NCBI GenBank assembly: GCA_038245295.1
Contig: JBBRSP010000016.1
Location: 54,327 to 118,326, forward strand
Reading direction: 5' to 3'
DNA: 64,000 bases
Origin: Candidatus Binatia bacterium
GTDB lineage: Bacteria; Desulfobacterota; Binatia; HRBIN30
The position numbers were made by a program, and so were the translations under genes. Below are positions 1,617 through 25,862 of the stretch, in pieces. Each line of letters starts with the position of its first letter. The stretch's first letter is position 1. Under the pieces are notes generated by a model. That model was not told the origin of the DNA and did no database searches. It saw nothing but the letters and a program-made list of their open reading frames with translations.

Positions 1617-1624
1617 CACCCGCG

Positions 1625-4399: not shown

Positions 4400-4607
4400 T
4401 GCAACCCGCGAGGATGGCAGGTTACAACGCCAGCGACGGCAACGGACGCAGTCCCGCTCGGTTCAATGTCGCGTACGCGGCCAAGGCAGAGGGCCTGAGG
4501 AACAATTCCTTGCAATCCAAAACATCGCCAGTATACAACCAGCCGAATGTGGGCGACCGATGTGTGTACGTTGGAATTCCGCCCGAGGAAAGGTCGCGCA
4601 AGTCAAC

Positions 4608-5417: not shown

Positions 5418-5432
5418 CGATTGGTACGAGTC

Positions 5433-7253: not shown

Positions 7254-8050
7254 CCAGCGGCGCGTTATTGGGCTCGCCCCTCTACGTTTACCTCACCTAT
7301 TGCCTGGAGTTCGGACTGCGCTACTTCGCACTGGCCGGTGGGGCGTACTGGCTGCTGCACGTGGCCTTTCGAGGCCGCTTTCTCACCTATCGCATCCAGG
7401 AGAAGTTCCCCGAGTCGACGGAGATTCGGCATGAGATTCGCTGGTCGATGTCGAACATGTGTTGCACCGGATTCTCAACCGTTCTCACCTACGAGCTGAC
7501 CCACAACGGGTACAGTAATCTGTACTACGGCGTGCTCGATCATGGTGTCCTCTGGCTCGCTCTGTCTGCCGTCTTGTGCGTGGTTGGTTACGATACCTGG
7601 CTCTACTGGGAGCATCGGCTCCTCCACACGGATTGGCTGTTCCAGCATGCGCATCGGGTGCATCACCGCGTCGGCAACCCGACACCGTTGGCAACCTTCG
7701 CCCATCATCCAATCGAAACACTGATGGGTAACGTCTACTTTGTCCTATTCGCCGTGCTGGTCCCCGTACACCCCTTGGCTCTGGCTGCGGCGGGTCTTTA
7801 CATGTTTCTCTTTGGCATCGTCGGTCACCTGGGCTACGAGTTCTACCCGCGATGGTTCTCACGAACCGTTCTCTTCAAGATCCTGAATACGGCCACCTAC
7901 CACAACATCCACCACCGGCAGGTCCGCTGTAACTACGGTGCCTATTTCATCTTCTGGGACCACTGGATGGGCACAGCCAACCCGTCGTACGAAGAGACAT
8001 TCGACGTCGTAACGGCGCGCCGTTCCGACGCTACGCTGACGGCTCTCTGA
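7250..8050 (+). CDS. Sterol desaturase / fatty acid hydroxylase superfamily protein
   Basis: His boxes YWEHRLLH, HRVHH, FAHHPIE, HLGYE, YHNIHH, NYGAYFIFWD; membrane segments. Confidence 0.9.
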   Translation: MTSGALLGSPLYVYLTYCLEFGLRYFALAGGAYWLLHVAFRGRFLTYRIQEKFPESTEIRHEIRWSMSNMCCTGFSTVLTYELTHNGYSNLYYGVLDHGVLWLALSAVLCVVGYDTWLYWEHRLLHTDWLFQHAHRVHHRVGNPTPLATFAHHPIETLMGNVYFVLFAVLVPVHPLALAAAGLYMFLFGIVGHLGYEFYPRWFSRTVLFKILNTATYHNIHHRQVRCNYGAYFIFWDHWMGTANPSYEETFDVVTARRSDATLTAL

Positions 8051-8122
8051 CGCAGCGTCAACCTTTCCGGGCAGAGACTGTCGAGCCTTCCGCAAACCTA
8101 GGCAGGCAGTACCGCGCGTAGT

Positions 8123-9043
8123 ATGGGGCCACTGGAGCGACTTACGTTGAATGCCATCGACTTGTCCGTCGTAACACCCGTTTACAACAACGCCGCGACG
8201 CTCGACGAGCTGCTCGACCGCATCATCAAGGTGGTTGAGCCGATTACCGCTGATTTCGAAATCATCCTGGTCGACGACGGCTCGCGCGATGAGAGCTTGT
8301 CGATTCTACGACGACGCGCTGCCGCCGACCCACGGATTCGACCACTGTCGCTGGTACGCAACTTCGGCAGCCAGGCCGCCGCCTGCGCCGGGTTGGACCA
8401 TGTGCGCGGACGGCGCATGGTTTCGATCGACGCCGACCTGGAGAATTGTCCGGAGGACATCCCGGCGTTACTCGAGCCGCTCGACCGCGGCTACGATCTA
8501 GTGTGTGGCTATCGTGAAACACGCGACGCCCCCTGGCTTCGACGCAAGCTCCCTTCCTTGATCATGAACGCCTACATCCGATACCAGCTTGGCACCCGCG
8601 TACGAGACCTGGGCTGCGGGATGCGGGCCATGCACTCGTGGGTCATCCGTGATCTCGAGTCCGAAGGTGAAAACCGCCGACTGCTGACACCGATCATTCT
8701 ACGCCGCGTTCGTAAGGTCGCGGAAGTTCCGATTCGCCCCGGCATCCAACGTACCTCGAGCGCCCACTCCTTCCTCACTCTGCTCGGCATGGCCATGGAT
8801 TACTACTTGCTCTCGGCGCGGCGCCCATTCCTGATCAGCGGCCTCACTTCTGTTCTCGTCGTGGGGGTGGGAAGCACGCTGCTGCTCTTTGGTCCGAGAT
8901 TGGCGGGGCTCGTATTGTTCGCGTCGGGGTGGCTTGGCGCCCTGATGTCTCTTCTCGGCGAATACCTGCAGCGCAGCTACCAACTGGCTCAACGCGTGCC
9001 CTTCTACAAACTCAGGCAGCCGGACGAACCAGGCAATCCCTGA
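8123..9043 (+). CDS. GT2 glycosyltransferase (ArnC/GtrB-like polyprenyl-phosphate glycosyltransferase)
   Basis: LSVVTPVYN, VDDGSRD, RNFGSQAA, IDADL, DLGCGMRA, two C-terminal TM helices ending GEY. Confidence 0.88.
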   Translation: MGPLERLTLNAIDLSVVTPVYNNAATLDELLDRIIKVVEPITADFEIILVDDGSRDESLSILRRRAAADPRIRPLSLVRNFGSQAAACAGLDHVRGRRMVSIDADLENCPEDIPALLEPLDRGYDLVCGYRETRDAPWLRRKLPSLIMNAYIRYQLGTRVRDLGCGMRAMHSWVIRDLESEGENRRLLTPIILRRVRKVAEVPIRPGIQRTSSAHSFLTLLGMAMDYYLLSARRPFLISGLTSVLVVGVGSTLLLFGPRLAGLVLFASGWLGALMSLLGEYLQRSYQLAQRVPFYKLRQPDEPGNP

Positions 9044-9104
9044 TCCTCCGCTACGGACTAGATTCGGCGACAGCGGCACCCGATGGCACGCGATGGTTCG
9101 CGCA

Positions 9105-10787
9105 TCATTTCCAGCCTTCAACGAGCAGCAACGGCAGATTCTCCCAGGCGTTGATCGGTCCAACATCCGGAAGGGGCACCTTCAGGCGGTCTCGGCCGTG
9201 GGCGGCGATCAGGCTACCGAACTGCAGTTCCCAGTTTTGGAGGTAGATGCCGGCGGACACGCGGCCAATCTCTCGCGGCAGCGGGTCCAGCGGCTGGCCC
9301 GCCACCGGTACTTCCGGGACTCCGACGATCCACACCTTCCCCCCACGCCGAAGAGTAGCCTCCACACGTGCCAGGTCGGGCTCGACAGCCGCCTCTCCCG
9401 CCTTCATCTTCTCCGCCACCAGATGATGTCGATGAAACTTGTGCTCTTCAAAATCCGGGATCGTGATCCACGCAGCTCGTCCACGATAGTAGCGCTGGAA
9501 GGTGATCCCACAGTACCAGGGGAAGACCACGATAAGATCATCGGGCCGCGCGCTCACGTTCAGCTCGGCGGCAATCACATCAAGGTTGGTAAGGCGCACG
9601 TTCAGCGTCTCCCAAACGGCCGGTATTGCCATCAGCAAACCTAGAACCACCAACCCGACGCGGCCGTGTTCCCCCCAAGGTATGCGTTGGACCAAGGAGC
9701 GAACGCCGATCTCGCAAGCCAGTGCACTCACGATGATCACCGATAGGTAGTGCCAATACTGCGTCGGTATACGCAGCTGCCCATAGATCGCGAACGTGAC
9801 GACGAAGCCAAGCGACCACGACAGCAGCGTGTACAGCAAGCGATCGAGCTCTTTTTCGGTCGCGGGAGAATAGAGACCAACAACAAATCCGGCGACGGCA
9901 ATGGTGGCCGCGATCGCCCAGGCGACGCTCAAACCCAGGGCGCCGGGGCCCAACGAATGCCCGAACACCTGCAACAGCCAACCATAGCTCCAGTAGTGCG
10001 CCTGCTCGATCGGAGCGGCCGACGCGAAGGCACGCAGCGTCGGCACATTTATGCCGAACAACAACACGGACGTGATCGTACCCAGGGCAATCAGCATCCG
10101 GAGAACCGGCCAGTCACGTCGACGTAGACAGACGACCGCCGCGGCAACCCCGATTGCCGCGAACAAGACGCAGTTCGCGAAGGAGACTTGCGTCGCCACC
10201 AGCGCCGCCAATTGGGCAACCAGGAAGCGGCGCCGATCAGGCCGCTCGAGCAACGCCCACGTCGCTCCGAACGACCAGGCGATGCCGAGCGCCGCGATTC
10301 CGTAACCGCGCACCTCGTCGCCATAGAGGACGATCGATGGGCTGAGACCACACAGCAGCAGCGAAACCAGAGGCGGCCCGATCCCCAGGCGCCAGCCGGT
10401 CCACCAGAGCACCCCAATCGTCATCAACCCAATGAGCAACCCGAATCGCCGCAGACCGGCGTCGGTGTCGCCGAGTCCGGCATCGGTCCAAAGACGAAGG
10501 AGCGCCGCCCAACCGAGCGGAAACGAGTCGAGGCCCAGATTGGCCACAACCTCCGTGAAGGTGGGCATCTGCACCAGGTTGACGCTGTTGACCTCATCGC
10601 GCCAAAGACCGCCGACATGCCGATGACTGTGGATGTGCAACGCGACCAGCGCCAGCGTCATCAGGATACCGGCGGCCAACGCAAGGCGGGCGTCGAGACT
10701 ACGCTGCACCGGGTTCTCGTCTGGCTGAGTTGGCAGCGCGGACCCGCCGATCCGAGAAAGTTGGCGGCGGCACCAAAGCCCCGTCAA
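9105..10787 (-). CDS. GT-C fold membrane glycosyltransferase-like protein (GT39/ArnT-like)
   Basis: LWRDE motif in first loop, EVRGY motif, about 11 hydrophobic segments and a soluble C-terminal domain. Confidence 0.65.
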   Translation of the reverse strand: MTGLWCRRQLSRIGGSALPTQPDENPVQRSLDARLALAAGILMTLALVALHIHSHRHVGGLWRDEVNSVNLVQMPTFTEVVANLGLDSFPLGWAALLRLWTDAGLGDTDAGLRRFGLLIGLMTIGVLWWTGWRLGIGPPLVSLLLCGLSPSIVLYGDEVRGYGIAALGIAWSFGATWALLERPDRRRFLVAQLAALVATQVSFANCVLFAAIGVAAAVVCLRRRDWPVLRMLIALGTITSVLLFGINVPTLRAFASAAPIEQAHYWSYGWLLQVFGHSLGPGALGLSVAWAIAATIAVAGFVVGLYSPATEKELDRLLYTLLSWSLGFVVTFAIYGQLRIPTQYWHYLSVIIVSALACEIGVRSLVQRIPWGEHGRVGLVVLGLLMAIPAVWETLNVRLTNLDVIAAELNVSARPDDLIVVFPWYCGITFQRYYRGRAAWITIPDFEEHKFHRHHLVAEKMKAGEAAVEPDLARVEATLRRGGKVWIVGVPEVPVAGQPLDPLPREIGRVSAGIYLQNWELQFGSLIAAHGRDRLKVPLPDVGPINAWENLPLLLVEGWK

Positions 10788-10897
10788 AATGATTCATGCC
10801 AGACGCCGTCGGGGCTCAGCTCCGAAAAACTGTCGGCACGGGATGAGAGACATAGCCGCCGGTTCTTGCACGAATCACCCTACCATCGCAATTTCTT

Positions 10898-10999
10898 GGT
10901 AGTGTCTCAATTTGGGATCCACACCCACCGATGGGTTCTAATCGGAGCGATGGGATCCACCACCCGCCAGCCGCCAACAGGTCAAACTGAGACACCACC
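10898..10999. mobile_element. 102-bp MITE with 17-bp terminal inverted repeats and 9-bp target duplication
   Basis: Left end GGTAGTGTCTCAATTTG (10898-10914), right end CAAACTGAGACACCACC (10983-10999), 15/17 complementary; CAATTTCTT at 10889-10897 and 11000-11008. Confidence 0.8.
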
Positions 11000-11094
11000 C
11001 AATTTCTTGGCGAGTTCCCTGCTCGGCGCCTAAAAACCTAGGCATATGCCTGGGCGCATAGTATTGGGAGGATCTAGTTCGCAGGAAAGGGCCC

Positions 11095-13131
11095 ATGAAT
11101 CGTCCGATCTCGATCTTCTTGGGGGACATGCTTCACCCCAGCAATCAGAACAAAACATTTCCCTATGCGGGCGGATGCGTCGGCGCCTACGTGGCCGAGG
11201 CGCTTGGTGATCGTGTCGTAGTTGAAGTGTTCCGTTCCCCGGAAGACATGGATGCCGCCTTCCAGCGTTGCCAACCCGACATCATCGGCTTCAGCAACTA
11301 CCTATGGACCCTCGAGCTTACCTACGAAGTCATCCGTCGCCTCAAGGCAAAGATGCCAAACGTCCCCGTCATCATGGGCGGCCCGAATTACCCAACCGAC
11401 GCGGCGGATCAGCGGGCGTTTCTGACGCGCTACTCTCTGGTCGATTTCTACGTGGTGAAGGAGGGTGAGGCGCCGTTCCTGGCGCTCATCGAGCAGCTTC
11501 TGGAGCTCAGGCTCGACGGCGCCGTATTCAAGGAGCAGCGCCGTACAATTCCCGCCGTCCACTATCTTATCAACGAGGATTTCGTCGCTCCGCCACCGGC
11601 GCCACGGCAGCGCGACCTCGACGCCTTTCCTTCGGCGTATTTGAGTGGTCTGCTCGACAAGTTTTTCACGCGCCACGACCTCACGCCATTGATCCAAACC
11701 AAACGTGGTTGTCCGTTTCAGTGCACGTTCTGCGTCGAGGGCGAGGACTACTACACCAAGGTCGGTTCGGTGACCACGACGCGTTTTCGCGCCGAGTTGG
11801 AATACATCGCCAGCCGAATGGCTAACGGCTCGCCGTTGCTGCAGATCGCCGATTCGAATTTCGGCATGTTCGAACACGACCTCGAAGTATGCGACGTCAT
11901 CGCCGAGGTGCGTGACACGTACGGCTGGCCACAAACCATCGAGGTATCAACCGGGAAAAATCGCAAGGAACGCGTCCTCGAGGCGGTACGCCGCACCAAA
12001 GGCGCCATGCGGTTTGGTCCGGCGCTGCAAACCACCGATCGCCAAACCCTGCAGAATATCAAACGCTCCAACATTTCCGAAACCGTCCTGATCGAGATGG
12101 CGAGCGCGGCAAAAGATTCCGACCAGCGATCCTATACGGAACTGATCCTCAATTTGCCGGGCGATACGATCGCCTCGCACCTGACTTCGATTCGCGCCGC
12201 GATGGAAGCCGGGATGCAACGGATCAAAATGTATCCCCTGATGCTGCTCCCCGGCACGGAGATGGCCTCCGAGGAGTCGCGCCGCGAATTCGGCATTGAG
12301 ACACGCTTCCGTGTCTTGCCGACGTGTTACGGCAACTACACGTTCCTTGGCGAGACGTTTCCAAGCGTCGAGATCGCCGAGTTGGTCGTCGCCACCAATT
12401 CCATGAACTTCGCCGACTATCTGCACTGCAAGCGCTTCGAGCTATCGGTGGAGATCTTCTACAACGACATCTACCTCGAAGAGATCCACGGCCTGGCACG
12501 CGCGCTCAATCTACCGATGTTCACCTTCGTCGAGCGCTGCCATGCCCAGTTCGACAGCTTCCCGGCGGAGCTCAAAGAGGTCTACAGCGCCCTCGAGCAC
12601 GGCGTCTGCGACAATCTCTTCGACTCGCGCGACGCTTGCCTCGAGCATTTCCGCGATCCGGACCATCTGCTTCGCTATGCGCGCGAGGAATACAAGAACA
12701 GCCTCGGCGCTTTGAAGGCGATCGCCCTGGTGGAGCATATCGAGCCGCTGTTGGTGATCGCCCGCCGGGCCTTCTGGGAGTGTATGGAAGCAGCAGGACT
12801 GGGGCAGCCGTCCCTCGCCGAGTACCTCGATGAGCTCATCGAATACAGCCGCCTGCGACGCCGCCAGATCCTCGACATCGAAGTCGAGCCGGAAGGAACG
12901 TTCCAGTTTGCCTTCGACCAGATCGGTGAACGCGCGTTCCGCGTCGATCCGCGCGACTTCCGCCTGCGGCAGCCGCAACGCATGCGCTTCTGGCACGACG
13001 AGGCGCAAGCCCGCGACTTGCGGCGACTGCGCAGCGACGTATCCAATCCGATCCTACGGGCCCGCTCATTCATCTACCCGGCCACCGATCCGGGCGTGAA
13101 CCCGTATCTGCGTCACGCACGTTTCTGCTGA
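11095..13131 (+). CDS. Cobalamin-binding radical SAM protein (678 aa)
   Basis: PDIIGFSNYLW, GGPN, EGE in B12-binding region; KRGCPFQCTFC; ADSNFG; LLPGTEM. Confidence 0.88.
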   Translation: MNRPISIFLGDMLHPSNQNKTFPYAGGCVGAYVAEALGDRVVVEVFRSPEDMDAAFQRCQPDIIGFSNYLWTLELTYEVIRRLKAKMPNVPVIMGGPNYPTDAADQRAFLTRYSLVDFYVVKEGEAPFLALIEQLLELRLDGAVFKEQRRTIPAVHYLINEDFVAPPPAPRQRDLDAFPSAYLSGLLDKFFTRHDLTPLIQTKRGCPFQCTFCVEGEDYYTKVGSVTTTRFRAELEYIASRMANGSPLLQIADSNFGMFEHDLEVCDVIAEVRDTYGWPQTIEVSTGKNRKERVLEAVRRTKGAMRFGPALQTTDRQTLQNIKRSNISETVLIEMASAAKDSDQRSYTELILNLPGDTIASHLTSIRAAMEAGMQRIKMYPLMLLPGTEMASEESRREFGIETRFRVLPTCYGNYTFLGETFPSVEIAELVVATNSMNFADYLHCKRFELSVEIFYNDIYLEEIHGLARALNLPMFTFVERCHAQFDSFPAELKEVYSALEHGVCDNLFDSRDACLEHFRDPDHLLRYAREEYKNSLGALKAIALVEHIEPLLVIARRAFWECMEAAGLGQPSLAEYLDELIEYSRLRRRQILDIEVEPEGTFQFAFDQIGERAFRVDPRDFRLRQPQRMRFWHDEAQARDLRRLRSDVSNPILRARSFIYPATDPGVNPYLRHARFC

Positions 13132-14132
13132 TCGAGACGCATGTGGAAGCTTGCCGCCGAACGCAAGCACTGGTGCCCGAGCTTGCCGAACACGTTGATG
13201 CTCTGAATGGTCGACGTCTGGGTTTCATTCTCCAGATAACTGGCGCCGAGCGGGCGCGTCGCCGCACACTCCTTCTGTAGGGCGGTGAACAAGCCGCGAT
13301 AGCCCGGCAACGTTCCGCCGATGCCGCGACCGACGATGCGAACGCCAGCCGCCTCCGACAAATCGGGCATGATCATCATCGTGTGGAAAGCAACGATCTC
13401 CGCGCCGTCGCGCACGACCAGAAGCACGTCGGCCCATTCACCGGTCAGCGCCTTCTGCGTCCACACTTGATAGATTCCTAGAGCCCGCTCATGCGGCACG
13501 CCGCGATCAAACACATATGGGCCGCGATCAAAGGCCGTGGCCGTCCAGGCGTATAGCCGTTGCCAGGACGAGGGATCGATATCGGCAATCGCAGGCTTCT
13601 CGATTAACTCGATGCGCAGCCCGCTCGGCAAATCATGCGGTGCACGTTGCCCCGTGAGGGCCTGCATCCAGGAGATCTTGGTCCCGACGTAAAACGCTCC
13701 GAGTTGCTGCAGCGCCCACCAGGCAGTGCGATCGTGCGTCGAAGTGACCGCCGAGAAATGTTGAAACCGGCGCTCACGAAGAATTTCGCAAGCCGCTCCG
13801 TAGAGAGCTTGCAAGGGTTCCAGCCTTGCTTCTTCGTCGGCACTCGCCAATGGCGGCTCGATCTTGGCCATCGACAGGCCGAAGTGTTGTGACTCGAAGT
13901 GCCGCCGACCGATTTGCAGGGCCGCCAACGCTTGCCCGCCGGCATCACGCGCCACCAGTACACTCTGCGCGCTGCCGGCATCACGCCAAGCCCGCCGATG
14001 CACTGTCAGGGCGCCCCCATCGCGGACCATGGGCGCAAAGTTCATGTAGGTTAGATAGGGCTCCCGCGGCAGCAATGCGTCCAGTGCTTCCTCCAGGAGA
14101 GCGCCTTGCTCCAGCGCCACGCGTATCGGCAT
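13113..14132 (-). CDS. GNAT-fold acyltransferase, WecD/RffC-like
   Basis: FESQHFG, IYQVWTQKALTG and PGYRGLF...ETQTSTIQS resemble TDP-fucosamine acetyltransferase; lies just downstream of a DegT aminotransferase. Confidence 0.6.
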   Translation of the reverse strand: MPIRVALEQGALLEEALDALLPREPYLTYMNFAPMVRDGGALTVHRRAWRDAGSAQSVLVARDAGGQALAALQIGRRHFESQHFGLSMAKIEPPLASADEEARLEPLQALYGAACEILRERRFQHFSAVTSTHDRTAWWALQQLGAFYVGTKISWMQALTGQRAPHDLPSGLRIELIEKPAIADIDPSSWQRLYAWTATAFDRGPYVFDRGVPHERALGIYQVWTQKALTGEWADVLLVVRDGAEIVAFHTMMIMPDLSEAAGVRIVGRGIGGTLPGYRGLFTALQKECAATRPLGASYLENETQTSTIQSINVFGKLGHQCLRSAASFHMRLDQQKRA

Positions 14133-14273
14133 CGCGGCGAGCTATACATTCGCGCCAGACACGGGGGAAGAGGCAGCGGACGATCGATTCGCTCGCCCGC
14201 TTTTCTCACCGAGTCGCTTAACGACAGCACCGAGTGTGCATCGGATCAGGGCTCGCGCAGCGATGACACAGGG

Positions 14274-15473
14274 CTAGCGCCGGTAATACAGAAGAATCCG
14301 CCGCAGCGCGGCGATGACGTCGTCGTGGTCGGCGTCCGACATCGCCGGATACAGTGGCAGGGATAGGATGCGCGACGACGCATCGTTCGCCACCGGCGTG
14401 TGGGCGCGCGTTTCTCCCTCGACATCCTGGAAGTAGCGTTGCGTCGTCAAGGAGCGGAAATGCACGCCCACCCCGATATTGTCGGCAAGCAGCGCTTCGA
14501 GAAGCTGATCGCGGGACAAACGCAGGGCGCCGAGATCGAGCAGCACAGGGAAGAGATGTGCCGCGGTCTGCGACTCGGCCGGACCGGACACGCAAGTCAG
14601 CTCCGGACGATCGGCAAACGCCGCGCGATACCGCGCATCGAGATCACGCCGGCGCGCCAGGAAGGCGGGGAGTTTCTTCAATTGCTCGATGCCGAGGGCG
14701 GCGCCGATGTCGCTCATGTTGTACTTCCACCCGGCAGACACCGCCTCCCAGTGACGATAGCTCTTGCCGATGCGCTGACTGGCATCGACGTCGATGCCCT
14801 GCAGCCGCTCGCGCCGCATGCGTTCGACGAACTCGGGGTGGCTTGTTGTGATCATGCCACCCTCCCCCGTCGTGATGTTCTTGGTGGCGTAGAAACTGAA
14901 GACTGCCGCGTCGCCGAGCGCACCGGCGGCAACGCCGTGGTAGGTCGCGCCCAGAGCGTGCGCCGCGTCTTCGATCAACCGCGCTCCCGCCTGAGCGGCG
15001 ATCTGTCGCAGGGCGTTCATCTCGGAAGGCCATCCGGCGAACTGTACCGGCAGGATGACTCGCGTACGCGGCGTGATCGCCTCTTGCACGCGTGCCGGGT
15101 CGAGCGTCAGTTGGTCGGGTAACACGTCGGCGAATACCGGGCGGGCGGCACAGTGCAAGATGGCGTTCGCCGTGGCGGGAAACGTAATCGGCGACGTGAT
15201 GACTTCGTCGCCAGGCCCCACCCCGGCGGCACGTAACGCCAGATGCAACCCGGCTGTGCAGGACGACACGGCGATGGCGTGCGGCACACCAACAAACGCC
15301 GCGAATTCGCGTTCGAACCTGTCACTGCGCGGGCCGGTCCCGAGCCAACCGGAGCGCAACACCTCGACGACCGCGCGCTCCTCTTCTTCGCCAAGCTGCG
15401 GTCGGGCGAAAGCCAGCAGCGACTCTCGCACCGGCGCGCCGCCTGCCATTGCCGGGATGTCGTTCCGACCCAT
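14274..15473 (-). CDS. DegT/DnrJ/EryC1/StrS PLP-dependent sugar aminotransferase
   Basis: AVSSCTAGLHLAL, GDEVIT, EDAAHALG, FSFYATKNITTGEGG, LSLPLYP. Confidence 0.95.
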   Translation of the reverse strand: MGRNDIPAMAGGAPVRESLLAFARPQLGEEEERAVVEVLRSGWLGTGPRSDRFEREFAAFVGVPHAIAVSSCTAGLHLALRAAGVGPGDEVITSPITFPATANAILHCAARPVFADVLPDQLTLDPARVQEAITPRTRVILPVQFAGWPSEMNALRQIAAQAGARLIEDAAHALGATYHGVAAGALGDAAVFSFYATKNITTGEGGMITTSHPEFVERMRRERLQGIDVDASQRIGKSYRHWEAVSAGWKYNMSDIGAALGIEQLKKLPAFLARRRDLDARYRAAFADRPELTCVSGPAESQTAAHLFPVLLDLGALRLSRDQLLEALLADNIGVGVHFRSLTTQRYFQDVEGETRAHTPVANDASSRILSLPLYPAMSDADHDDVIAALRRILLYYRR

Positions 15474-15503
15474 CGATTCGATCTCCTTGTTGCAGCCGTG
15501 CGG

Positions 15504-16313
15504 TCAGGCGCGCCAGAAGCGCATTTCGAGGGAAATGCGGGTGAGATTGTGGTTGAAGTTCCGCGCCCCGCCATGGATGAGATACGGCGAGAATACCAGG
15601 CAGTGATCGTCCGGCACGTCGGGCCGCTCGAGCGCCACCGGGCGGCGCGCGCCGGTTACGGCGGGAACCGTGTAGACACGTGCATCGGCGGTCGCCCCAC
15701 CCAGCGTGCGCTCGATGTCCGACTCCGGCCAGTGATGACTGGCAGCGACAAGTGGCAGAGACGACAGAGCATTCGAGCCAAACAAGGGAGCGTAGATGTT
15801 GATCGCGTCGCGCAAGCGATCGATCCAGACGTCACGGTGCGGCGGATTGTTGTCGGTCGAACCCGGTCGCACGATGCGAAAAGCACCGTACGCGGCCCCC
15901 AGGTGCGGTGAGAATGCCGTGACCCGCATGCCACACACATCGCTGACGGCATCTTCAATCTCTGCCACAGGGACCGGGCCGCCGGCTGCTTCAAAGCCGC
16001 GCCGCACCCCTTCGACAAACGCATGGTGCAGCGCCGGTTCGAGCGCGGCGATCTCGTGATAGCGGGTCCATTCGACCGGCGCGCCGACATACCCGAGTGC
16101 GCGCAATTGCTGTTCAAGAAACGCAGCGACGTCACGGCGCATCTTGGCGCGCGAATCTGCCGTCAGGAAAGGTTCGACGGTGTATCCGATCGCCGACCAG
16201 GGCTGCCCCGCCGTGAGATCATCGTCGTTGTCGAGGAGCACCACCTCGGCGCCGTATCCTCTTGGTCCGTCGCCGATATCCGGCAACTCTTCACCATTGA
16301 GGATCCAACGCAT
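15504..16313 (-). CDS. Putative Fe(II)/2OG dioxygenase (PhyH-like)
   Basis: HxD in PPHRDVW, SLPLVAASH, distal His in YLIHGGARN and RISLEMR. Confidence 0.65.
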   Translation of the reverse strand: MRWILNGEELPDIGDGPRGYGAEVVLLDNDDDLTAGQPWSAIGYTVEPFLTADSRAKMRRDVAAFLEQQLRALGYVGAPVEWTRYHEIAALEPALHHAFVEGVRRGFEAAGGPVPVAEIEDAVSDVCGMRVTAFSPHLGAAYGAFRIVRPGSTDNNPPHRDVWIDRLRDAINIYAPLFGSNALSSLPLVAASHHWPESDIERTLGGATADARVYTVPAVTGARRPVALERPDVPDDHCLVFSPYLIHGGARNFNHNLTRISLEMRFWRA

Positions 16314-16362
16314 GAGAACGCAGTACCACAGCGTTCAATTGCCCAGCAACGGGCGACGCCGC

Positions 16363-17370
16363 TCAACCATAGGAGCGCAGCCCCTCGATGGCCGCAGTCA
16401 GCGGGCGTTTGAAAAGCATATTGAACTCGAGCATCGGACCAACCGTGCAAACGGTGCACGGCGTCTCACGATTCCAGGTGCGGCGCCAATCGTCGGCCAA
16501 CAGGTCCACCGACACCGTCGTACCCTTGGTGTACGCGCAGGGGTATGCGTGGCCCAGCGGGTCGACATAGATGTAGCCGTGTCCGGCGGGACAACGCTCG
16601 TTCGGATCCTTGTACGCCGAAACCGAGAAGTCTTCCCAACGCGATAGATACTCGAGGTAAGGCGTTGAGCTGACAATCGGCCGCCCTTTGCGTTTCTCCT
16701 CGAGGAGATGTTGCCAAAAGGCACGGAACTGTTGGTTCGAAATCGTCGTGTCGATGGCGCCGCGAACGATTTCCGTATCCACGCATTGCGGCTGGAAGTG
16801 CATCCGGAAGCCGATGGTCTCGGCTTGTTGCAGCAGGTACTCGGCTTGCGCCAGACTGTGCTGGGTGACGACACAGATGGCGATGACGGGTTTGCCGCTG
16901 CGCAGCAACTGGGTGATGCTCTCCATGACCCCCTCGTACGCATGAGCGCCGCGCGCCGCGACATGGGCCGCCGCATCGCCATCCAGGCTGGTGTACACGA
17001 GGTCTGCCTGCGCCAGACGCTCGGGATGCCGAGCAAACAGAGTGAGATTCGAGTTGACGCTCACGTAGAACTTTTGGCGCTTGGCCAGATCGATGATTTC
17101 ACCCAGGTCGGCGCGCAGCAGAGGTTCGCCTCCCGCGATACCTAGGCGACGGATGCCCATTTCCCTCAATCGCTCGAAGAGAACGGCGATGCGATCAAGT
17201 CCGAGGTTCTTTGGATCGATGAAGGGACAGTTGCAGTACTCGCAGCGCAGATTGCAGCGGTTCGTAACGACGAAGGTGGCGGAAAACGGCCGTGGTGCGC
17301 CATCAACCATGTACGAAAGTAGACTCGTCGCGTACGAGTAGCCGACCGCGAGTTTCTCACCCAACAGCAC
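16363..17370 (-). CDS. Radical SAM protein with SPASM/twitch-type C-terminus
   Basis: TNRCNLRCEYC, GGEPLLR, SLDG, C-terminal CPAG...PC...CTVC. Confidence 0.9.
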   Translation of the reverse strand: MLLGEKLAVGYSYATSLLSYMVDGAPRPFSATFVVTNRCNLRCEYCNCPFIDPKNLGLDRIAVLFERLREMGIRRLGIAGGEPLLRADLGEIIDLAKRQKFYVSVNSNLTLFARHPERLAQADLVYTSLDGDAAAHVAARGAHAYEGVMESITQLLRSGKPVIAICVVTQHSLAQAEYLLQQAETIGFRMHFQPQCVDTEIVRGAIDTTISNQQFRAFWQHLLEEKRKGRPIVSSTPYLEYLSRWEDFSVSAYKDPNERCPAGHGYIYVDPLGHAYPCAYTKGTTVSVDLLADDWRRTWNRETPCTVCTVGPMLEFNMLFKRPLTAAIEGLRSYG

Positions 17371-18226
17371 TGGTAGTCCCCAGCAGGTAGAGCCACAGGA
17401 CGCCGAAGTACGCCTTCGTCAGCAGCCATCCCGTGCGCGCATTGCTGAACGAGAAGTAAATCACCAACGGGACAAATGCCGTGGTCGCCCACGCCGAACC
17501 GACGGGCTCGCGCAGGGCCATGTACAGAAAGAGCGTCAACGCCGCGAGTACAGTCGCGGACAGCCCAGCGGATCGTACGGCGGTGGTGGTAATCAAATTC
17601 GCAGCATCCGCGGCACGATCGCCAAGCGTCTGGTAGAGATGGCAAACCGCCGTCATCAATCCCACGAGAAGAAGCTCCGATGACGAGGAGCTCACAATCG
17701 CCGCATAGACAGCACCCCAGAGGCCGCACCAGACAACATCCATGACGGCGACACCCTTGAGCTTCGTCGAGTAGAGAATATTGACGAGCATGACCCCGGC
17801 AACCGCTGCCGCGGCACGAAGGTCGAGGGTGACGTAAGCGGCGACGACCGTCAGGAGCTTCAAGGTCAGGACTACCACTCCGGACAGCCAGCGATGCGCC
17901 AAATAGATCGAGACAACCTCTTGATCCTTCTTCGGATTGTTCGAATCCGTCGGGGCGTCGTACAGATCATTGAAGGCGTACATGAGAGCAATCGCCAACA
18001 GCGAAATGAGTATCTGTGTGATCTCTCGCGATGCGATCAATCCACCCTTCAGAATCAGCGAAACATTGATCGCGAATAAAGCCCCTTCGCCCCCACGCGC
18101 GCGATGCAACGTCGACGCAGCACCCGCCCACAACAACTCGCTCACGGCAGTCGCGCTCGTCGACAAACTCACCCGTCCAGGCACGGTCGTGCTGTCGTCG
18201 GCTGGAATCGTTTCCGAAGGGGGCAT
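17357..18226 (-). CDS. UbiA family prenyltransferase
   Basis: NDLYDAPTDSNNPKK, YSTKLK, second acidic motif GDRAAD; multiple TM helices; overlaps downstream radical SAM gene. Confidence 0.8.
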   Translation of the reverse strand: MPPSETIPADDSTTVPGRVSLSTSATAVSELLWAGAASTLHRARGGEGALFAINVSLILKGGLIASREITQILISLLAIALMYAFNDLYDAPTDSNNPKKDQEVVSIYLAHRWLSGVVVLTLKLLTVVAAYVTLDLRAAAAVAGVMLVNILYSTKLKGVAVMDVVWCGLWGAVYAAIVSSSSSELLLVGLMTAVCHLYQTLGDRAADAANLITTTAVRSAGLSATVLAALTLFLYMALREPVGSAWATTAFVPLVIYFSFSNARTGWLLTKAYFGVLWLYLLGTTSAVG

Positions 18227-20480: not shown

Positions 20481-20502
20481 CATGGTCCGAGAAGGAGTGC
20501 CA

Positions 20503-21243
20503 ATGACTGCTGCCGGAGAGACCTCGACTATACAAACAACCGAAGAACGGGAGTCCGCCGGAAAGCTGATGGGACTCGTCGTTTTTGGCGAGATGGTCGC
20601 CGCACGCACTTATAAACTGATGGCTGATCTGCGACCCGAGTTCGCAACGATTCTGCGCAAGTTCGCCTCGATGGAAGGCCAGCATGCCACCTGGTTCCGC
20701 GACACCAGCCAGCGCAACGGCATCGAGCTCGACAAGGATTTTGCCGATAAAGAGCTCGGTTACCTGATCGATCAAGTCGACAACTACTCGGCCCAGAAAG
20801 ACTTCGACGCCTTGATGATTGTGCAAGGCTTCATCGTCGAGAGTCTGGCCATCGCCACCTATGAGCCTTTCCTGGAGATCGCCCCGAAGTACGAGGGTGC
20901 CAGTGCCGCGTTCGCGCAGGCGTTGGCCGACGAGCGTTATCACGTCGACTGGGTGACTCGTTACCTGCGGCTGCGCTTCTTCGACAACCACGACGAGTTC
21001 ATGTCGCTGACCGACCGCGTCAATGTCCAAGGCATCGATTGCGTCGGCGGCACACTCATGAGCATCGCCAACGGCTTGAAAAGCGTTGGCCTTTCGGCGG
21101 CCGATTGCACGGGCGCGATGATGGACGAATACACGAGCCTCCTCGAGAATGTCGGCGTCGAGTCGCGACGCGCCACCAAGGCCGTAGTCAGCTTGTTCGT
21201 ACCGTTGGCGCAAAAGTATCGCCGCCGCCCAGAAGCGCACTGA
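20503..21243 (+). CDS. Aldehyde-deformylating oxygenase (long-chain fatty aldehyde decarbonylase) homolog, ferritin-like di-iron protein
   Basis: RBS GAAGGAG at 20491. 246 aa with E30, E58xxH61, E113, E144xxH147; blocks GEMVAARTY, MEGQH, DKDFA, IVQGFIVESLAIATY, DERYH, YTSLLENVG align with cyanobacterial ADO as recalled (GEQEA, MEQRH, IQSLIIECFAIAAY, DEYLH, YGEALENIG). Confidence 0.82.
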   Translation: MTAAGETSTIQTTEERESAGKLMGLVVFGEMVAARTYKLMADLRPEFATILRKFASMEGQHATWFRDTSQRNGIELDKDFADKELGYLIDQVDNYSAQKDFDALMIVQGFIVESLAIATYEPFLEIAPKYEGASAAFAQALADERYHVDWVTRYLRLRFFDNHDEFMSLTDRVNVQGIDCVGGTLMSIANGLKSVGLSAADCTGAMMDEYTSLLENVGVESRRATKAVVSLFVPLAQKYRRRPEAH

Positions 21244-21272
21244 GTAAACCGGAAGCGAAAGGCGCTTTCCCC

Positions 21273-21899
21273 ATGGAGGACTCACTCGAAGCACTCTTCT
21301 GGGCGATTCTGCGGCGCTTCGAGAGTGCCGCGATCCGCCAGTATGACCGTGTTGCGCCAGAGCTGGCCGAGGCCGCCAAGCGTGCCTATGTCGCCCGGCT
21401 CCAAGACTGTGGCGCCACCGATGCGGTGCTCGATGCCAGCGAGTTGGCCGCACCGGTGCGAGACCTTCTAGCCACCGCCGCCAATAATGATCTGGTGACG
21501 ACGTTGATCGTCCAGGGCTTATTTCTCGAGCATCTTGGTCGAGCCATCTATCGCGTCGCCGGCGAGCAAGATTCCATGAGCCCGGAAAGCCGCGCCCTCG
21601 CCGCCGATGGCATCGTCGCCAGTGATGCCGTGGTGGCGCGCTGCACGGAATTGCTGGCCCGCACGATTCCCAACGGAGAAGATTTGTTCCACCGCTTTGT
21701 CGACGCCTCGCGCGACCTGGTCGAGCGGCTCGACACACTGGGCGAGGCGGTCGACCATGTGTTCGGCGAACGCTTCCACCTGCACTTCCGCGACATCATG
21801 GGCGACTTCACCGCCGACCTGCTGCCGGCCTGCGTCGAGCTCGGCATGACACGCCGAAAAGTCGTGGCGCATTTGACCGGCGCACTCATGGGGATCTGA
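21273..21899 (+). CDS. Degenerate ADO-like ferritin-fold protein lacking both ExxH motifs
   Basis: FESAAIRQY matches GEMVAARTY and DLVTTLIVQGLFLEHLGRAIY matches DFDALMIVQGFIVESLAIATY of the upstream gene; 208 aa; no ExxH at equivalent positions. Confidence 0.65.
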   Translation: MEDSLEALFWAILRRFESAAIRQYDRVAPELAEAAKRAYVARLQDCGATDAVLDASELAAPVRDLLATAANNDLVTTLIVQGLFLEHLGRAIYRVAGEQDSMSPESRALAADGIVASDAVVARCTELLARTIPNGEDLFHRFVDASRDLVERLDTLGEAVDHVFGERFHLHFRDIMGDFTADLLPACVELGMTRRKVVAHLTGALMGI

Positions 21900-21907
21900 C
21901 CGACTCG

Positions 21908-23077
21908 ATGCGCGTCGCCAGCGGAGAAGCGGTTTGCATCACCGGCGCCAGCGGCTACGTCGGCCGTCTCGTCGCCGCGGCGTTGCTGGCATACGAGGAC
22001 GTCGATCTCGTCATCCCGGTGCGCGAGAAGTACAGCGCCGCCGATATTGCCACTGCGGTTGCCAAGGAGTGCGAGACCCTCGGCACACCGGCTTCGCCCG
22101 AGATGCTGCGTCGCCTGCACGTGGTGGCGCTACCCCCGACAAGCGAAATGGCATCACTCGGGCCGCTGCTGCGCCAGCATCGGGTTCGCCAGATCATCCA
22201 CTGTGCCGGCTCCCTCAGTTACTTCAGCGCCAGCAAGCTGAAGGAAGGCAACCTCGATCTGACGCGCGCCCTGCTCGATGTCGCCAAGGCCAACGGCGTC
22301 CATCGATTCCTCTACATGTCGACCGCCTTCAGCGCCGGCTTCGTTGCCGGACAGGTGCGGGAAGCCCTGCACCACGATCCGCCCGAGGACCCAACCGAAT
22401 ATACGCGTTCGAAGCGCCAGACCGAACACATGGTCGCCGACAGCGGGCTCGATTACGTCATCCTGCGGCCGTCGATCGTCATCGGCCACAGCCGCAGCGG
22501 CCTCTACTCGGGGCGACCGTATGGCCTCTACCAACTGTGGAACGCCGGCGAACGGTTCATGAGTGACCGCTACACCCCCGTCTTGCACGCCATCGCCCCG
22601 CGCGTTCCGCTGCAGGTCGTGCATCAAGACGCCGTGCAGGCGGCGGTATTGGCCGCCTACCGCGAGATTCCAAGCGGCGGTGTGTTGCACATTGTGTCGC
22701 GCGAAGCCTCGCTACCGACGGTGCGCGAGATGTGGGATTTGTGGTTCGGCGCCTGGGCGCGTCCACAAGAGATGCACTACTACGACACGCTCGAAGAAGT
22801 GCCCATGCAGGAGCTCGACCGCCAACAGCGCTGGCTCGTCGAGTTCGCCGCCGCCAATATCGAAATCTCGACCCATCCCTGGCATTTTGCGGCGCATCGC
22901 CTGGACGCCCTGCGCCGGGACGGCCTCGCCTTTACCGATGCCAGCATCGAAACCGTGGCCAACTCGCAGCGCGTCTTCATGCAGAACTCGCCGCGCATTC
23001 GCCGCTTCCTCGAAGCGCATGCCGATAAGATTCCGGCAGCGTCGGCCACCGCGCCGCATTCCGCCGGCTCGGAGTGA
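21908..23077 (+). CDS. Extended SDR, thioester reductase / fatty acyl reductase-like
   Basis: ITGASGYVG, IIHCAG, YMSTAF, YTRSK (YxxxK), LRPSIVIGHSRSG. Confidence 0.8.
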   Translation: MRVASGEAVCITGASGYVGRLVAAALLAYEDVDLVIPVREKYSAADIATAVAKECETLGTPASPEMLRRLHVVALPPTSEMASLGPLLRQHRVRQIIHCAGSLSYFSASKLKEGNLDLTRALLDVAKANGVHRFLYMSTAFSAGFVAGQVREALHHDPPEDPTEYTRSKRQTEHMVADSGLDYVILRPSIVIGHSRSGLYSGRPYGLYQLWNAGERFMSDRYTPVLHAIAPRVPLQVVHQDAVQAAVLAAYREIPSGGVLHIVSREASLPTVREMWDLWFGAWARPQEMHYYDTLEEVPMQELDRQQRWLVEFAAANIEISTHPWHFAAHRLDALRRDGLAFTDASIETVANSQRVFMQNSPRIRRFLEAHADKIPAASATAPHSAGSE

Positions 23078-23196: not shown

Positions 23197-24252
23197 ATGG
23201 ATCGGTCCAACTACACCCATCTCGACGAAGCGTTCGACATGCTGACGGACTGCGGTCCCGACATGAAGAATGGCTTTACAAATCACGGCCCGATGGCAGC
23301 CGAAGCCCTTTGTGCGCTTGGCCGCGCCGATGCCGTGCTCGATTGGGTGGAGAATTACCGTCGCGGCGGCCTGCCCTGGGCGCCGTCGCGCCAAACCATC
23401 GATCAGAACAACTGGCGGGAGGCGTTGGCCCGGGAAGACCGCATCAGCGATTGGCGCGCCTTCTTTCACGCAGAGATGCAGGGAGCGACGTGGCAGGAGG
23501 TCCTGAACCGTTGGGCCGGCCAACTCGCACCGGGCATCTGCGCCGCCGCAGCCCATGGCGTCATCCGCGTCGGCCACGCGGCGCGTGCCCTCGGCGCCGA
23601 GGAAACAGCGCTGCGGCGCGCCGAGCTCGCCGACGCACTGGCCTCGTGGGCCTACGCGTATCAAGAGTTGCCGACGCAAACACCGATTTCGCCGGGCACG
23701 CTCACCCCGCATCAGGCCTTCGGCCGGGTACCGCTGATGCCACCGGAACAGCGGCGCTTCAGTGGCACGATTGTGTCCTCTCTCTATGCTTTGAATGACT
23801 TCCCCGCGTTTGCACCGGTGATTGGATTGATCGATGTCCGCGGCGAACCCCAGCGCCTGGTCGGCCAGATGACCGAGGTCTTTGCCCGGGTCTATCTAGA
23901 AAACGCCAAGGACGTTCTGACGTCGATCGTTTTCATCCATGGCGTCACCGGCATCGACGCACTCGGCAACATGCTTCCGTACCTCGACGACGCAACGGCG
24001 CGCACGGCGCTAGGGTATGCGTGGCAAGCGAGTTGCGGACTTTACGCGGCGTTCGGCACACACCCCCTGGGCGGAAGCGAAATCGAAGCGCCCCGCGAAA
24101 ACGACGAAACGCTCGTCGAGATGGCTGTCGGCCACGGCGACGAACACGTCATCAAGTTTACCGAAGCGTGTTTGCACCAGCATTCGCTCAACCCTTCACC
24201 CGCCTACCTTGCCGCCGCTCGCCACGTCATCGACGCACTACCGCGCTCATAA
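23197..24252 (+). CDS. Questin oxidase family protein (DUF4243)
   Basis: NHGPMAAEALCALG, AAAHGVIRVGHA, FIHGVTG, HGDEHVIKFTEAC; RBS AAGGAG upstream. Confidence 0.75.
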   Translation: MDRSNYTHLDEAFDMLTDCGPDMKNGFTNHGPMAAEALCALGRADAVLDWVENYRRGGLPWAPSRQTIDQNNWREALAREDRISDWRAFFHAEMQGATWQEVLNRWAGQLAPGICAAAAHGVIRVGHAARALGAEETALRRAELADALASWAYAYQELPTQTPISPGTLTPHQAFGRVPLMPPEQRRFSGTIVSSLYALNDFPAFAPVIGLIDVRGEPQRLVGQMTEVFARVYLENAKDVLTSIVFIHGVTGIDALGNMLPYLDDATARTALGYAWQASCGLYAAFGTHPLGGSEIEAPRENDETLVEMAVGHGDEHVIKFTEACLHQHSLNPSPAYLAAARHVIDALPRS

Positions 24253-24321: not shown

Positions 24322-25068
24322 GTGAATAAAGAAGCTCAGCGTCGAGTCGAACAGGATCGTCTGTTCGCCGAAGAGCGTCGAACGATCCAGGATTTCAACT
24401 TCGGTGCCGATACCGCCGCCGTCTTCGACGATATGCTCGGCCGCTCGGTGCCGTTTTACGACGAAATCCAGCGCATGATTGCCGAGATGGTCGACGATCT
24501 CGGTGTCGACGGCACCAACGTCTACGACCTCGGCTGCTCGACGTGCGCCACGTTCCGTCAGCTGGCCGGCGTCAGCAAGGACGTCAACTTCATCGGCATC
24601 GACGACTCACGCGCCATGCTGGATCGCGCCGAAAAGGAACTGGCGGCCGCCGGCTTCAACCGACGCTACGAGTTGCGCGAACAGGACCTCCACAAAGGTC
24701 TGCAGATCGAGAACGCCTCGGTCGTCATCTTGAATCTCACCTTGCAGTTTGTGCGTCCGTTGTATCGCGAGCGTTTGCTGAAGACGATTTTCGACGGCCT
24801 GCAGCATCAAGGCGCTTTGATCATGGTCGAAAAGGTGCTGGCGAAGGGAACATTGGAGAGTCGCCTGTTCATCAAGTACTACCACGCGATGAAACGGCGC
24901 AACGGCTACTCGCTCACCGAGATCAACCAGAAGCGCGAGGCGCTCGAGAATGTCTTGATTCCCTACCGCCTCGAGGAAAACGAGCTGCTGCTGCGGGAGA
25001 CCGGCTTTACGGGCGTCGAGATCTTCTTCAAGTGGTACAACTTCTGCGGCCTGGTGGCGCTGAAATGA
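24322..25068 (+). CDS. cmoA: Carboxy-S-adenosyl-L-methionine synthase
   Basis: VFDDMLGRSVPFY, VYDLGCS, IENASVVILNLTLQF, KRRNGYSLTEINQKREALENVL, WYNF. Confidence 0.88.
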   Translation: MNKEAQRRVEQDRLFAEERRTIQDFNFGADTAAVFDDMLGRSVPFYDEIQRMIAEMVDDLGVDGTNVYDLGCSTCATFRQLAGVSKDVNFIGIDDSRAMLDRAEKELAAAGFNRRYELREQDLHKGLQIENASVVILNLTLQFVRPLYRERLLKTIFDGLQHQGALIMVEKVLAKGTLESRLFIKYYHAMKRRNGYSLTEINQKREALENVLIPYRLEENELLLRETGFTGVEIFFKWYNFCGLVALK

Positions 25069-25862
25069 CCGCCGTACCGCCACTCAGCGAGGCGGCGTCG
25101 AGTCCGGGCGCGAAGTTATTCTCGGCACTCGGCCGTTTTGTCTTCCGCTACCGCGATTACCTGGCGCCGGTCATCGCGATTCTCATACTGCTGCTGACCG
25201 AGCCGTGGCCATTTCTTGGCAGCCCCTATGCCGATCGCTGGCTCGGATTCTTCGGCTTCGTGGTGGCGTTGCTCGGGCAGGCGATCCGCATGACGGTCAT
25301 CGGCTACGCCTACATCGTGCGTGGCGGCGTCAACAAGGAGATTGCGGCGCCGCGCCTGGTCGCGGAAGGCTTCTACGCCCACAGCCGCAATCCGATGTAT
25401 CTCGGAAACTTCCTGCTCATCATCGGTTTGGCGCTGGTCTATAACTCGCCGGCCGTCTACCTGGTCGGCCTGCCTCTGTGTATCATCGGCCTGGTTTCGA
25501 TCGTGCGGGCCGAAGAGGAATTTCTGCTCGGCCGCTTCGGTGCCGAGTACGCCGAGTATTGCAGACGGGTACCGCGTTTCATTCCCAACATGCGGGGCTT
25601 GTATGCGACCTTGTCGGGCATGCAGTTCGACTGGCGTCGCGTGCTGCGCAAGGAGTACGGTACGACGCTGGCATGGACCAGCGCGATGACGATCTTCCTC
25701 GCCGTCGAGCAAGTCCATTGGGACGGCTTGTCGGAAAGCGACGACGAGCTGACCGCTCTGGGCGTCTCCTGGGCCGTCGTCTTCGCCGCCTACCTGATCG
25801 TGCGCTGGCTCAAAAAAAGTCGCCGCCTGGAAAGTGCGCCGGCCGCATCCGCCGTCCGGTAG
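25065..25862 (+). CDS. Isoprenylcysteine carboxyl methyltransferase (ICMT/PEMT) family membrane protein
   Basis: GFYAHSRNPMYLG, EEEFLLGRFGAEYAEYCRRVPRF; ATGA overlap with cmoA stop. Confidence 0.85.
   Translation: MTAVPPLSEAASSPGAKLFSALGRFVFRYRDYLAPVIAILILLLTEPWPFLGSPYADRWLGFFGFVVALLGQAIRMTVIGYAYIVRGGVNKEIAAPRLVAEGFYAHSRNPMYLGNFLLIIGLALVYNSPAVYLVGLPLCIIGLVSIVRAEEEFLLGRFGAEYAEYCRRVPRFIPNMRGLYATLSGMQFDWRRVLRKEYGTTLAWTSAMTIFLAVEQVHWDGLSESDDELTALGVSWAVVFAAYLIVRWLKKSRRLESAPAASAVR

Follow-up and report, generated by a model that had tools for sequence, protein, structure and literature searches.

The window analysed here is a stretch of 64,000 nucleotides from a Candidatus Binatia bacterium (assembly GCA_038245295.1, contig JBBRSP010000016.1), and it contains a cmoA gene, of the carboxy-S-adenosylmethionine (carboxy-SAM) synthase family, whose stop codon overlaps the start codon of a gene for an integral membrane protein of the ICMT/PEMT fold. 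We found that the two genes belong together as a conserved and mobile unit. It is quite probable that the CmoA protein makes carboxy-SAM and that the membrane protein uses it as a carboxymethyltransferase. If that is so, a phosphate of lipid A is its likely acceptor, and we hold the complete proposal, a membrane carboxymethyltransferase acting on lipid A phosphate, to be slightly favored. An earlier note on this DNA had suggested that carboxy-SAM may be used here by a membrane transferase or by another enzyme of the cluster to carboxymethylate a lipid or glycan. The conserved coupling speaks for the membrane transferase, whereas the 14 other window genes that we tested do not recur with the pair, and the choice of acceptor has narrowed towards lipid A.

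Species genomes gave 331 confirmed relatives of CmoA, of which the best 80 were used to assess the coupling, and the counts therefore describe one CmoA subfamily. A homologue of the membrane gene lay within about 1.7 kb downstream of cmoA in 75 of these 80 loci, nearly always directly adjacent, and the carriers fell under at least 13 phylum labels after doubtful labels were set aside. The loci are kin to each other and not independent, but the pattern nonetheless spans phyla. The same overlap of four bases as in the window was present at 36 of 73 scored junctions; an ATGA overlap is a usual sign of translational coupling. Among the five loci without a downstream membrane gene, one (L104) is cut off by the end of its contig, with a piece of the membrane gene in another part of the genome, and no membrane gene of the cmoA-linked type was found in the other four genomes. 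When the search was reversed in metagenomes, the membrane protein had 27 close homologues, of which 23 had cmoA directly upstream; cmoA was found in the retrieved flanks of none of 53 distant ICMT homologues. Both genes were present in 19 of 61 related genomes, cmoA without the membrane gene in three (one at a contig end, two next to soluble methyltransferases) and the membrane gene without cmoA in one. From the Bacteroidota phylum, 301 genomes drawn evenly yielded six proteins bearing the loop signature described below, all six beside cmoA, compared with none of 24 other relatives examined out of 66 further matches. The adjacency is far beyond chance. Across the 80 loci no third gene was conserved with the pair except chorismate mutase. 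No fusion of CmoA to the membrane protein occurred among 150 listed representatives, no search aimed at longer proteins having been made, and two patterns taken from the alignment found no relative on viral contigs. Cultured carriers include Ensifer adhaerens, Rhizobium, Gemmatirosa and Hufsiella. The one archaeal carrier is a doubtfully labelled Methanoperedens bin (L102) with the pair on a 3.4-kb contig, one of 53 genomes in its family, and is probably a binning error or a lone transfer. Separately, a 6.8-Mb genome labelled Bifidobacteriaceae, again doubtfully, contains lpxC and the pair (L117).

The unit also travels on plasmids. The membrane gene was found in 18 plasmid records (Ensifer, Rhizobium, Sinorhizobium and Gemmatirosa), and every one of them has cmoA within 40 bases of it. 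In Rhizobium sp. T136, two identical 780-nucleotide copies of an IS6 insertion sequence surround 2,125 bases in which cmoA, the membrane gene and a PAP2 phosphatase remnant are all the annotated genes. This arrangement is found on a conjugative plasmid (L241:6167-9851, NZ_CP088011.1), where the IS6 copies are inverted; on related plasmids the pair sits among group II introns and insertion sequences. No cmoB was found on the five plasmids searched, chromosomes being outside that search.

The features of the pair are listed in Table 1. A 439-residue open reading frame at 24543-25862 was considered as an alternative gene model for the membrane protein and rejected; the frame of the membrane gene is open upstream, inside cmoA, and homology begins near 25065.

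Table 1. Coordinates of the cmoA/membrane-gene pair and its motifs within the window.
Feature	Position	Strand	Basis
cmoA, carboxy-SAM synthase family, 248 aa	24322..25068	+	GTG start; TIGR00740, PDB alignments, genome search
Q203-K204-R205 of CmoA	24928..24936	+	aligned to E. coli QKR motif
ATGA stop/start overlap	25065..25068	+	sequence
ICMT/PEMT-fold integral membrane transferase, candidate carboxymethyltransferase, 265 aa	25065..25862	+	ATG start; Pfam, NCBIfam, hhalign, model
Clade signature loop G80-x-x-Y83-I84-x-R86-G87-G88; Arg86 (25320-25322) candidate carboxylate-binding residue	25302..25328	+	joint alignment

The CmoA product scored 222 bits on the CmoA model TIGR00740, above the cut-off of 193.3, and 161.8 bits on the stricter model PRK15451, below the cut-off of 285. 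It aligned end to end with the CmoA structures of E. coli (4GEK) and H. influenzae (1IM8) at E values of about 1e-43. R205 corresponds to the QKR arginine of E. coli CmoA (R199, counted after tag removal), which presumably binds the carboxylate of carboxy-SAM, and was kept in all 80 closest CmoA homologues. These results bear out the earlier description of the gene as a clear cmoA with the QKR motif. From family and context we infer that the protein makes carboxy-SAM. In the canonical pathway of E. coli (4GEK, 4QNV), CmoA supplies CmoB for the tRNA modification uridine 5-oxyacetic acid (cmo5U), and the window pair resembles that pathway in having a CmoA above the family cut-off, the QKR arginine and a transferase-fold gene directly after the synthase gene. 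It differs in that the partner is an integral membrane protein of the ICMT fold, that the pair is patchy and mobile, and that the pair genomes searched lack CmoB. The earlier note had seen no cmoB in the window, and the whole genome (6.63 Mb, 96.6% complete) has none either: the best match reached 39.6 bits against a cut-off of 275, and matches to PF08003 were weak and confined to the generic SAM-binding part. The genome thus lacks the gene that would define a cmo5U system. A genome-wide profile search likewise gave no second CmoA above the cut-off, so this is the only copy above it. Among named homologues, the closest are from Candidatus Binatia, which points to that class as the probable one of the host. 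The note had held that a cmoB elsewhere, with this as the only cmoA and an adjacency that is not conserved, would overturn its proposal; cmoB is absent, and the junction is kept in the loci and plasmid records counted above. It is scarcely credible, then, that the adjacency is incidental and that this CmoA serves tRNA together with a CmoB that was missed or has diverged. TIGR00740, an equivalog, carries a tRNA-modification annotation, and the genome is not closed, but CmoB was found in none of 50 tested carriers (50 of the 75) and none of the 61 relatives, with a positive E. coli control, and the coupling persists in different phyla, on plasmids and between two IS6 copies.

CmoA needs prephenate (PMC12783734 and PMC10491745), and a source of it is repeatedly encoded with the pair. 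A chorismate mutase gene was located directly before, between or after both genes in 16 of the 80 loci, alone in 5 and joined to DAHP synthase in 11. Eight of these loci are from Eisenbacteria; the other eight represent at least four further lineages. The background of the profile was 0.3 matches per Mb in the source genome and none in 53 control loci. Moreover, a search of the 150 best 50%-identity representatives revealed five clusters (P0182, P0205, P0206, P0215 and P0222) in which the membrane domain is fused to a C-terminal type II chorismate mutase, one of them from a Phycisphaerales bin. Four of the fusions were placed in a tree, where they make up a single clade within the family, so that the fusions may go back to one event. 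Prephenate would be of no obvious use to a plain SAM methyltransferase.

The membrane protein is helical, contains the R-H/N-P-x-Y and EE motifs of the ICMT/PEMT fold and passed both Pfam models (PEMT, 46.1 bits with a cut-off of 25; ICMT, 26.3 bits with a cut-off of 24), which agrees with the family first proposed for it. The best NCBIfam model was that of LmtA (TIGR04571), the Leptospira lipid A Kdo2 1-phosphate O-methyltransferase (Kdo, 3-deoxy-D-manno-oct-2-ulosonic acid), at 105.5 bits, far below the cut-off of 325; on the true-ICMT model NF040696 it reached 45.8 bits against a cut-off of 160. By hhalign, a set of LmtA-like proteins aligned with probability 100 and an E value of 3.4e-42 over 233 columns, the full length including a C-terminal extension that is absent from most generic ICMT proteins. 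An AlphaFold2 model built from 115 sequences had a predicted local distance difference test score of 92.6. Its best VIA-align matches were three ICMT entries (Z 12.1, 11.2 and 10.7; root mean square deviation 2.9 to 3.3 over about 140 residues), headed by 5VG9 (Z 12.1, deviation 3.0, 140 residues aligned); Foldseek gave no match at E ≤0.001, and its top rows were nonetheless ICMT structures. The core fold and the cofactor-site motifs are shared with ICMT (beetle 5V7P/5VG9, Methanosarcina 4A2N) and RhlM, whereas two extra C-terminal helices set the membrane protein apart from ICMT. Beetle ICMT has two acceptor-binding arginines, Arg173 and Arg246 (PMC8358657). The first is kept as Arg75 and the position of the second is Ile146, which separates the protein from true ICMT. 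The modelled fold, all-helical and membrane-embedded, is also not the soluble methyltransferase fold of the known carboxy-SAM transferases.

A joint alignment of 99 cmoA-linked, 11 LmtA-like and 51 other ICMT-fold proteins (Leptospira LmtA itself not among them) revealed a residue that may read the cofactor. Arg86 was present in 99 of 99 cmoA-linked proteins and Tyr83 in 99%, whereas all 11 LmtA-like proteins have threonine at the position of Arg86, in a G-x-x-P-x-x-T-S-G loop. The sample from the Bacteroidota phylum gave an independent result, with Arg86 in six of six cmoA-linked proteins and none of 24 others. The signature motif was found in all 120 word-search homologues among the matches listed and in 121 of 148 further representatives. 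A basic residue in the cofactor pocket was what the earlier note had suggested looking for, and by sequence alignment this clade-specific arginine is a candidate. It falls on the F184-N185-H186 loop of beetle ICMT, which we take to line the methyl site.

Such gained residues have precedents among carboxy-SAM enzymes. According to PMC12783734 and PMC10491745, an asparagine is replaced in CmoX by Arg350, which binds the carboxylate of carboxy-SAM, and CmoB contacts it through Lys91, Tyr200 and Arg315; the same sources describe the carboxy-SAM pairs TglE/TglF (3-thiaglutamate), MccS/MccB (carboxymethyl microcin C) and phage CmoA/CmoX (5-carboxymethylcytosine), and name as carboxy-SAM users CmoB, TglF, the MccS-linked microcin C pathway and CmoX. 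The window pair resembles the three pairs in having a dedicated synthase encoded alongside a methyltransferase-fold protein with a gained basic residue, here Arg86 as a candidate cofactor contact. It differs from them in that their acceptors are nucleic acids or peptides and their transferases have soluble CmoB-like or DNA-methylase-like folds (for MccB we assume a soluble methyltransferase type), as opposed to an ICMT fold and a predicted lipid acceptor here.

We also considered that the membrane protein might be an ordinary SAM methyltransferase, which either esterifies a carboxylate made by an unrecognized carboxy-SAM user, as CmoM does after CmoB in tRNA, or has lipid A as its methylation substrate, with CmoA serving another purpose. 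ICMT and RhlM methylate carboxylates (PMC11069360 and PMC8358657), some members of the family have no adjacent cmoA, and some cmoA homologues lie beside soluble methyltransferases (L034, L052 and L113). Nevertheless, an unrecognized user is hard to place when chorismate mutase is the sole further gene conserved in the 80 loci, when the IS6-flanked unit has just two intact genes, when it is the membrane protein to which chorismate mutase is fused and when CmoB is absent from the carriers tested. In addition, some pairs adjoin another ICMT-fold gene or domain, distinct from the first and lacking Arg86 (L048, L063, L075 and P0122), which is a better candidate for methyl-esterification. We therefore regard a plain methylase as improbable and favor carboxy-SAM use by the membrane protein. 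The second ICMT-fold protein, fused in or adjoining in P0122 and P0207 and at three Omnitrophota loci (L048:4749-5465, L063:6739-7611 and L075:3029-3751), could by analogy with CmoM methyl-esterify the carboxymethyl group. The cmoA homologues without a membrane gene adjoin soluble methyltransferase-like genes (L113:2090-2893, L052:6761-7402, L034:696-3468 and L036), which are divergent in two Tepidisphaeraceae and flank cmoA in L034; they are candidates for further carboxy-SAM users.

The acceptor is suggested mainly by the relatives of the membrane protein. It shares with the LmtA-like proteins the residues G23, F27 and R30 (G-x-x-x-F-x-x-R), R75, G80 and N115, the R-N/H-P-x-Y motif, E150-E151 and the C-terminal extension. 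It differs from them in its Y-I-x-R-G-G loop and in having small residues, without E-R, before EE, where they have a P-x-x-T-S-G loop and an E-R-I motif, and none of the LmtA-like loci examined is coupled to cmoA. In two quick trees the cmoA-linked clade had Shimodaira-Hasegawa-like approximate likelihood ratio test (SH-aLRT) support of 95 and 99 and the LmtA-like clade 100 and 99, and both trees placed the two clades together. A third related clade was directly beside lpxB in eight of eight loci, and two of five checked members of a fourth adjoined a lipid A acyltransferase or heptosyltransferase gene. An approximately unbiased test (p 0.70) neither rejected nor demonstrated a single clade of cmoA-linked, LmtA-like and lpxB-linked proteins. 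Among carriers, lpxC was present in 49 of 51, and the source genome also has lpxK and waaA. ArnT-like genes were found in 9 of the 80 loci, compared with 0.6 per Mb of the source genome and none of 53 control loci. At L091 an ArnT-like gene (480 bits on ArnT) is directly upstream and the pair comes right after an arn operon; arn genes are close to the pair at L039 and L089. In Ensifer canadensis the run is cmoA, membrane gene, a regulator (best model PmrA, under the cut-off), a sensor kinase and a PAP2 phosphatase.

Two groups of these relatives are of interest in themselves. The lpxB-adjoining proteins, about 194 residues long and with a G-S-E-T-R-T loop in most (L274, L276-L278 and L280-L282 of the Bacteroidota phylum, and L145:1372-3032), may be a housekeeping methyltransferase of lipid A or lipid X. 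Beyond Leptospira, LmtA-like proteins that have the T-S-G loop are widespread, being present in 11 of 151 genomes of the phylum of the source organism (175-277 bits) and also in Bacteroidota (L198-L208, L217, L239, L260-L273, L275, L279 and L283). According to PMC10248169, methylated lipid A phosphate has been reported only from Leptospira. Near the pair itself, heavy-metal two-component regulators (TIGR01387 over the cut-off at three anammox-family loci, L087, L092 and L101) and the Mg/Co transporters MgtE and CNNM (L057, L059, L060 and L093) recur, no background having been computed.

Several observations weigh against carboxy-SAM use by way of Arg86 or against lipid A as the acceptor. Four of the 27 close homologues, as well as genome G052 (82% complete), hold the membrane gene with no neighboring cmoA. 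Of the 148 representatives, 27 do not carry the exact motif, some of them only on account of truncation or a displaced window, and Arg86 is missing from two. The register of Arg86 against beetle ICMT differs by one residue, falling on N185 or H186 depending on the alignment. LmtA-like proteins have an arginine at position 145 that is absent from the cmoA-linked clade, and Arg86 could be this acceptor-binding arginine relocated instead of a cofactor-binding residue; neither arginine is obligatory, because the lpxB-linked clade and L238 lack both. The LmtA-like set itself scores 175-277 bits, below the LmtA cut-off of 325, so that its substrate is likewise a prediction, and the grouping of cmoA-linked proteins, LmtA-like proteins and L238 had SH-aLRT values of 92 and 81 and was starred in neither tree. 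The gene lpxC is expected anyway in most carrier lineages and is absent from two carriers, one of them an archaeal bin. The ArnT-like genes are missing from 71 of the 80 loci, and they were counted with a profile built from the same loci against the background of one genome. Finally, when 112 of 255 picked neighbors of the pair were scanned, most had no relation to the envelope.

Some of these points would equally suit the same carboxymethyl transfer to another membrane lipid, such as a phospholipid head group or phosphatidic acid, an undecaprenyl phosphate-linked intermediate, a Kdo or sugar hydroxyl, or a glycolipid. All of the coupling evidence fits such an acceptor as well as it fits lipid A, ICMT-fold enzymes take varied amphiphiles (rhamnolipids in the case of RhlM, PMC11069360), Arg145 is absent and one carrier is archaeal. 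On the other hand, the nearest relatives are LmtA-like, lpxB-linked and lipopolysaccharide-linked, the E-R motif is absent from the lpxB-linked clade too, and the archaeal case is a single genome of its family. Another lipid is thus an unlikely acceptor, although one to be taken seriously. Transfer to a small thiol, another metabolite or a membrane protein, in the manner of MddA, is far less probable. MddA-type membrane enzymes methylate thiols, and the membrane protein matched the MddA model weakly (20.7 bits). TglF does carboxymethylate a thiol (PMC10491745), but the MddA score is one fifth of the LmtA score and covers only the shared core, and the LmtA-type extension and lipid A-linked relatives point to a lipid.

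We propose that chorismate mutase would supply prephenate, from which, together with SAM, CmoA would form carboxy-SAM. The coupled membrane protein would then use carboxy-SAM at the cytoplasmic face and move the carboxymethyl group (+58.005 Da) to a lipid of the inner membrane. Arg86, perhaps with Tyr83, may hold the carboxylate of the cofactor, in the manner of CmoX Arg350 or of CmoB Lys91, Tyr200 and Arg315. The acceptor would be lipid A or a precursor of it, at the 1-phosphate, which the conserved residues Arg75 and Arg30 would hold, and the product a phosphate diester of glycolic acid. The purpose, which is a guess, may be to cap the phosphate yet keep its negative charge, as a regulated step of lipid A remodelling beside ArnT and the PAP2 phosphatases.

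Other genes of the window were also considered as carboxy-SAM users. When 14 of them were tested against 102 loci, the matches were scattered ones to DegT (4), MDR (2) and radical SAM (1) proteins. Upstream of the pair, at 20482-23077 on the plus strand, are a ferritin gene resembling aldehyde-deformylating oxygenase (66.7 of 222 bits), a second gene of similar size without a family match and an acyl-reductase-like SDR; the run resembles a fatty aldehyde/alkane module and is followed by a questin-oxidase-like gene at 23197-24252. The region 105-18226 appears to tailor lipids or glycans. It encodes a fatty acyl-AMP ligase-like protein, an Asp/Asn beta-hydroxylase (LpxO-like, we assume), two B12/radical SAM-type proteins, a fatty acid hydroxylase, a GT2 protein, membrane glycosyltransferase-like proteins, an ArnB-like aminotransferase and a UbiA prenyltransferase. 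The genes of this region are not conserved with the pair.

A full-text literature search, with subscription journals mostly outside it and supplements not covered, turned up nothing about a cmoA/ICMT-type pair or a naturally carboxymethylated lipid A. Among bacterial enzymes of the ICMT fold, LmtA (TIGR04571) and RhlM (PMC11069360) are two whose substrates are known. Each protein family, and the logic of synthase and transferase, is known already; the pairing of this fold with this cofactor, and the predicted product, are undescribed as far as we searched. The known uses of carboxy-SAM are in tRNA, two peptide pathways and phage DNA, all through soluble enzymes. If the proposal is true, a membrane user of the ICMT fold extends carboxy-SAM to lipids and the ICMT fold to new chemistry, and should the target be lipid A, the most studied bacterial lipid would gain a new covalent modification; alkylation of its phosphate is described from Leptospira alone (PMC10248169). 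Capped by a carboxymethyl group, the phosphate would keep its charge but be closed to further change, with likely effects on cation binding and on recognition by phage and host. The pair is directly testable, given cultured carriers and an exactly predicted mass shift, and the annotation of its genes, now labelled 'tRNA modification' and 'isoprenylcysteine methyltransferase', should be corrected. Taken at its widest, the proposal is evenly poised: it would make this protein the first membrane-embedded carboxy-SAM transferase and its product an undescribed lipid A with a glycolic-acid-esterified 1-phosphate, the unit a regulated envelope-remodelling module that moves between phyla and on rhizobial plasmids, and its LmtA-like and lpxB-linked kin a broad, unstudied family of enzymes that alkylate lipid A phosphates.

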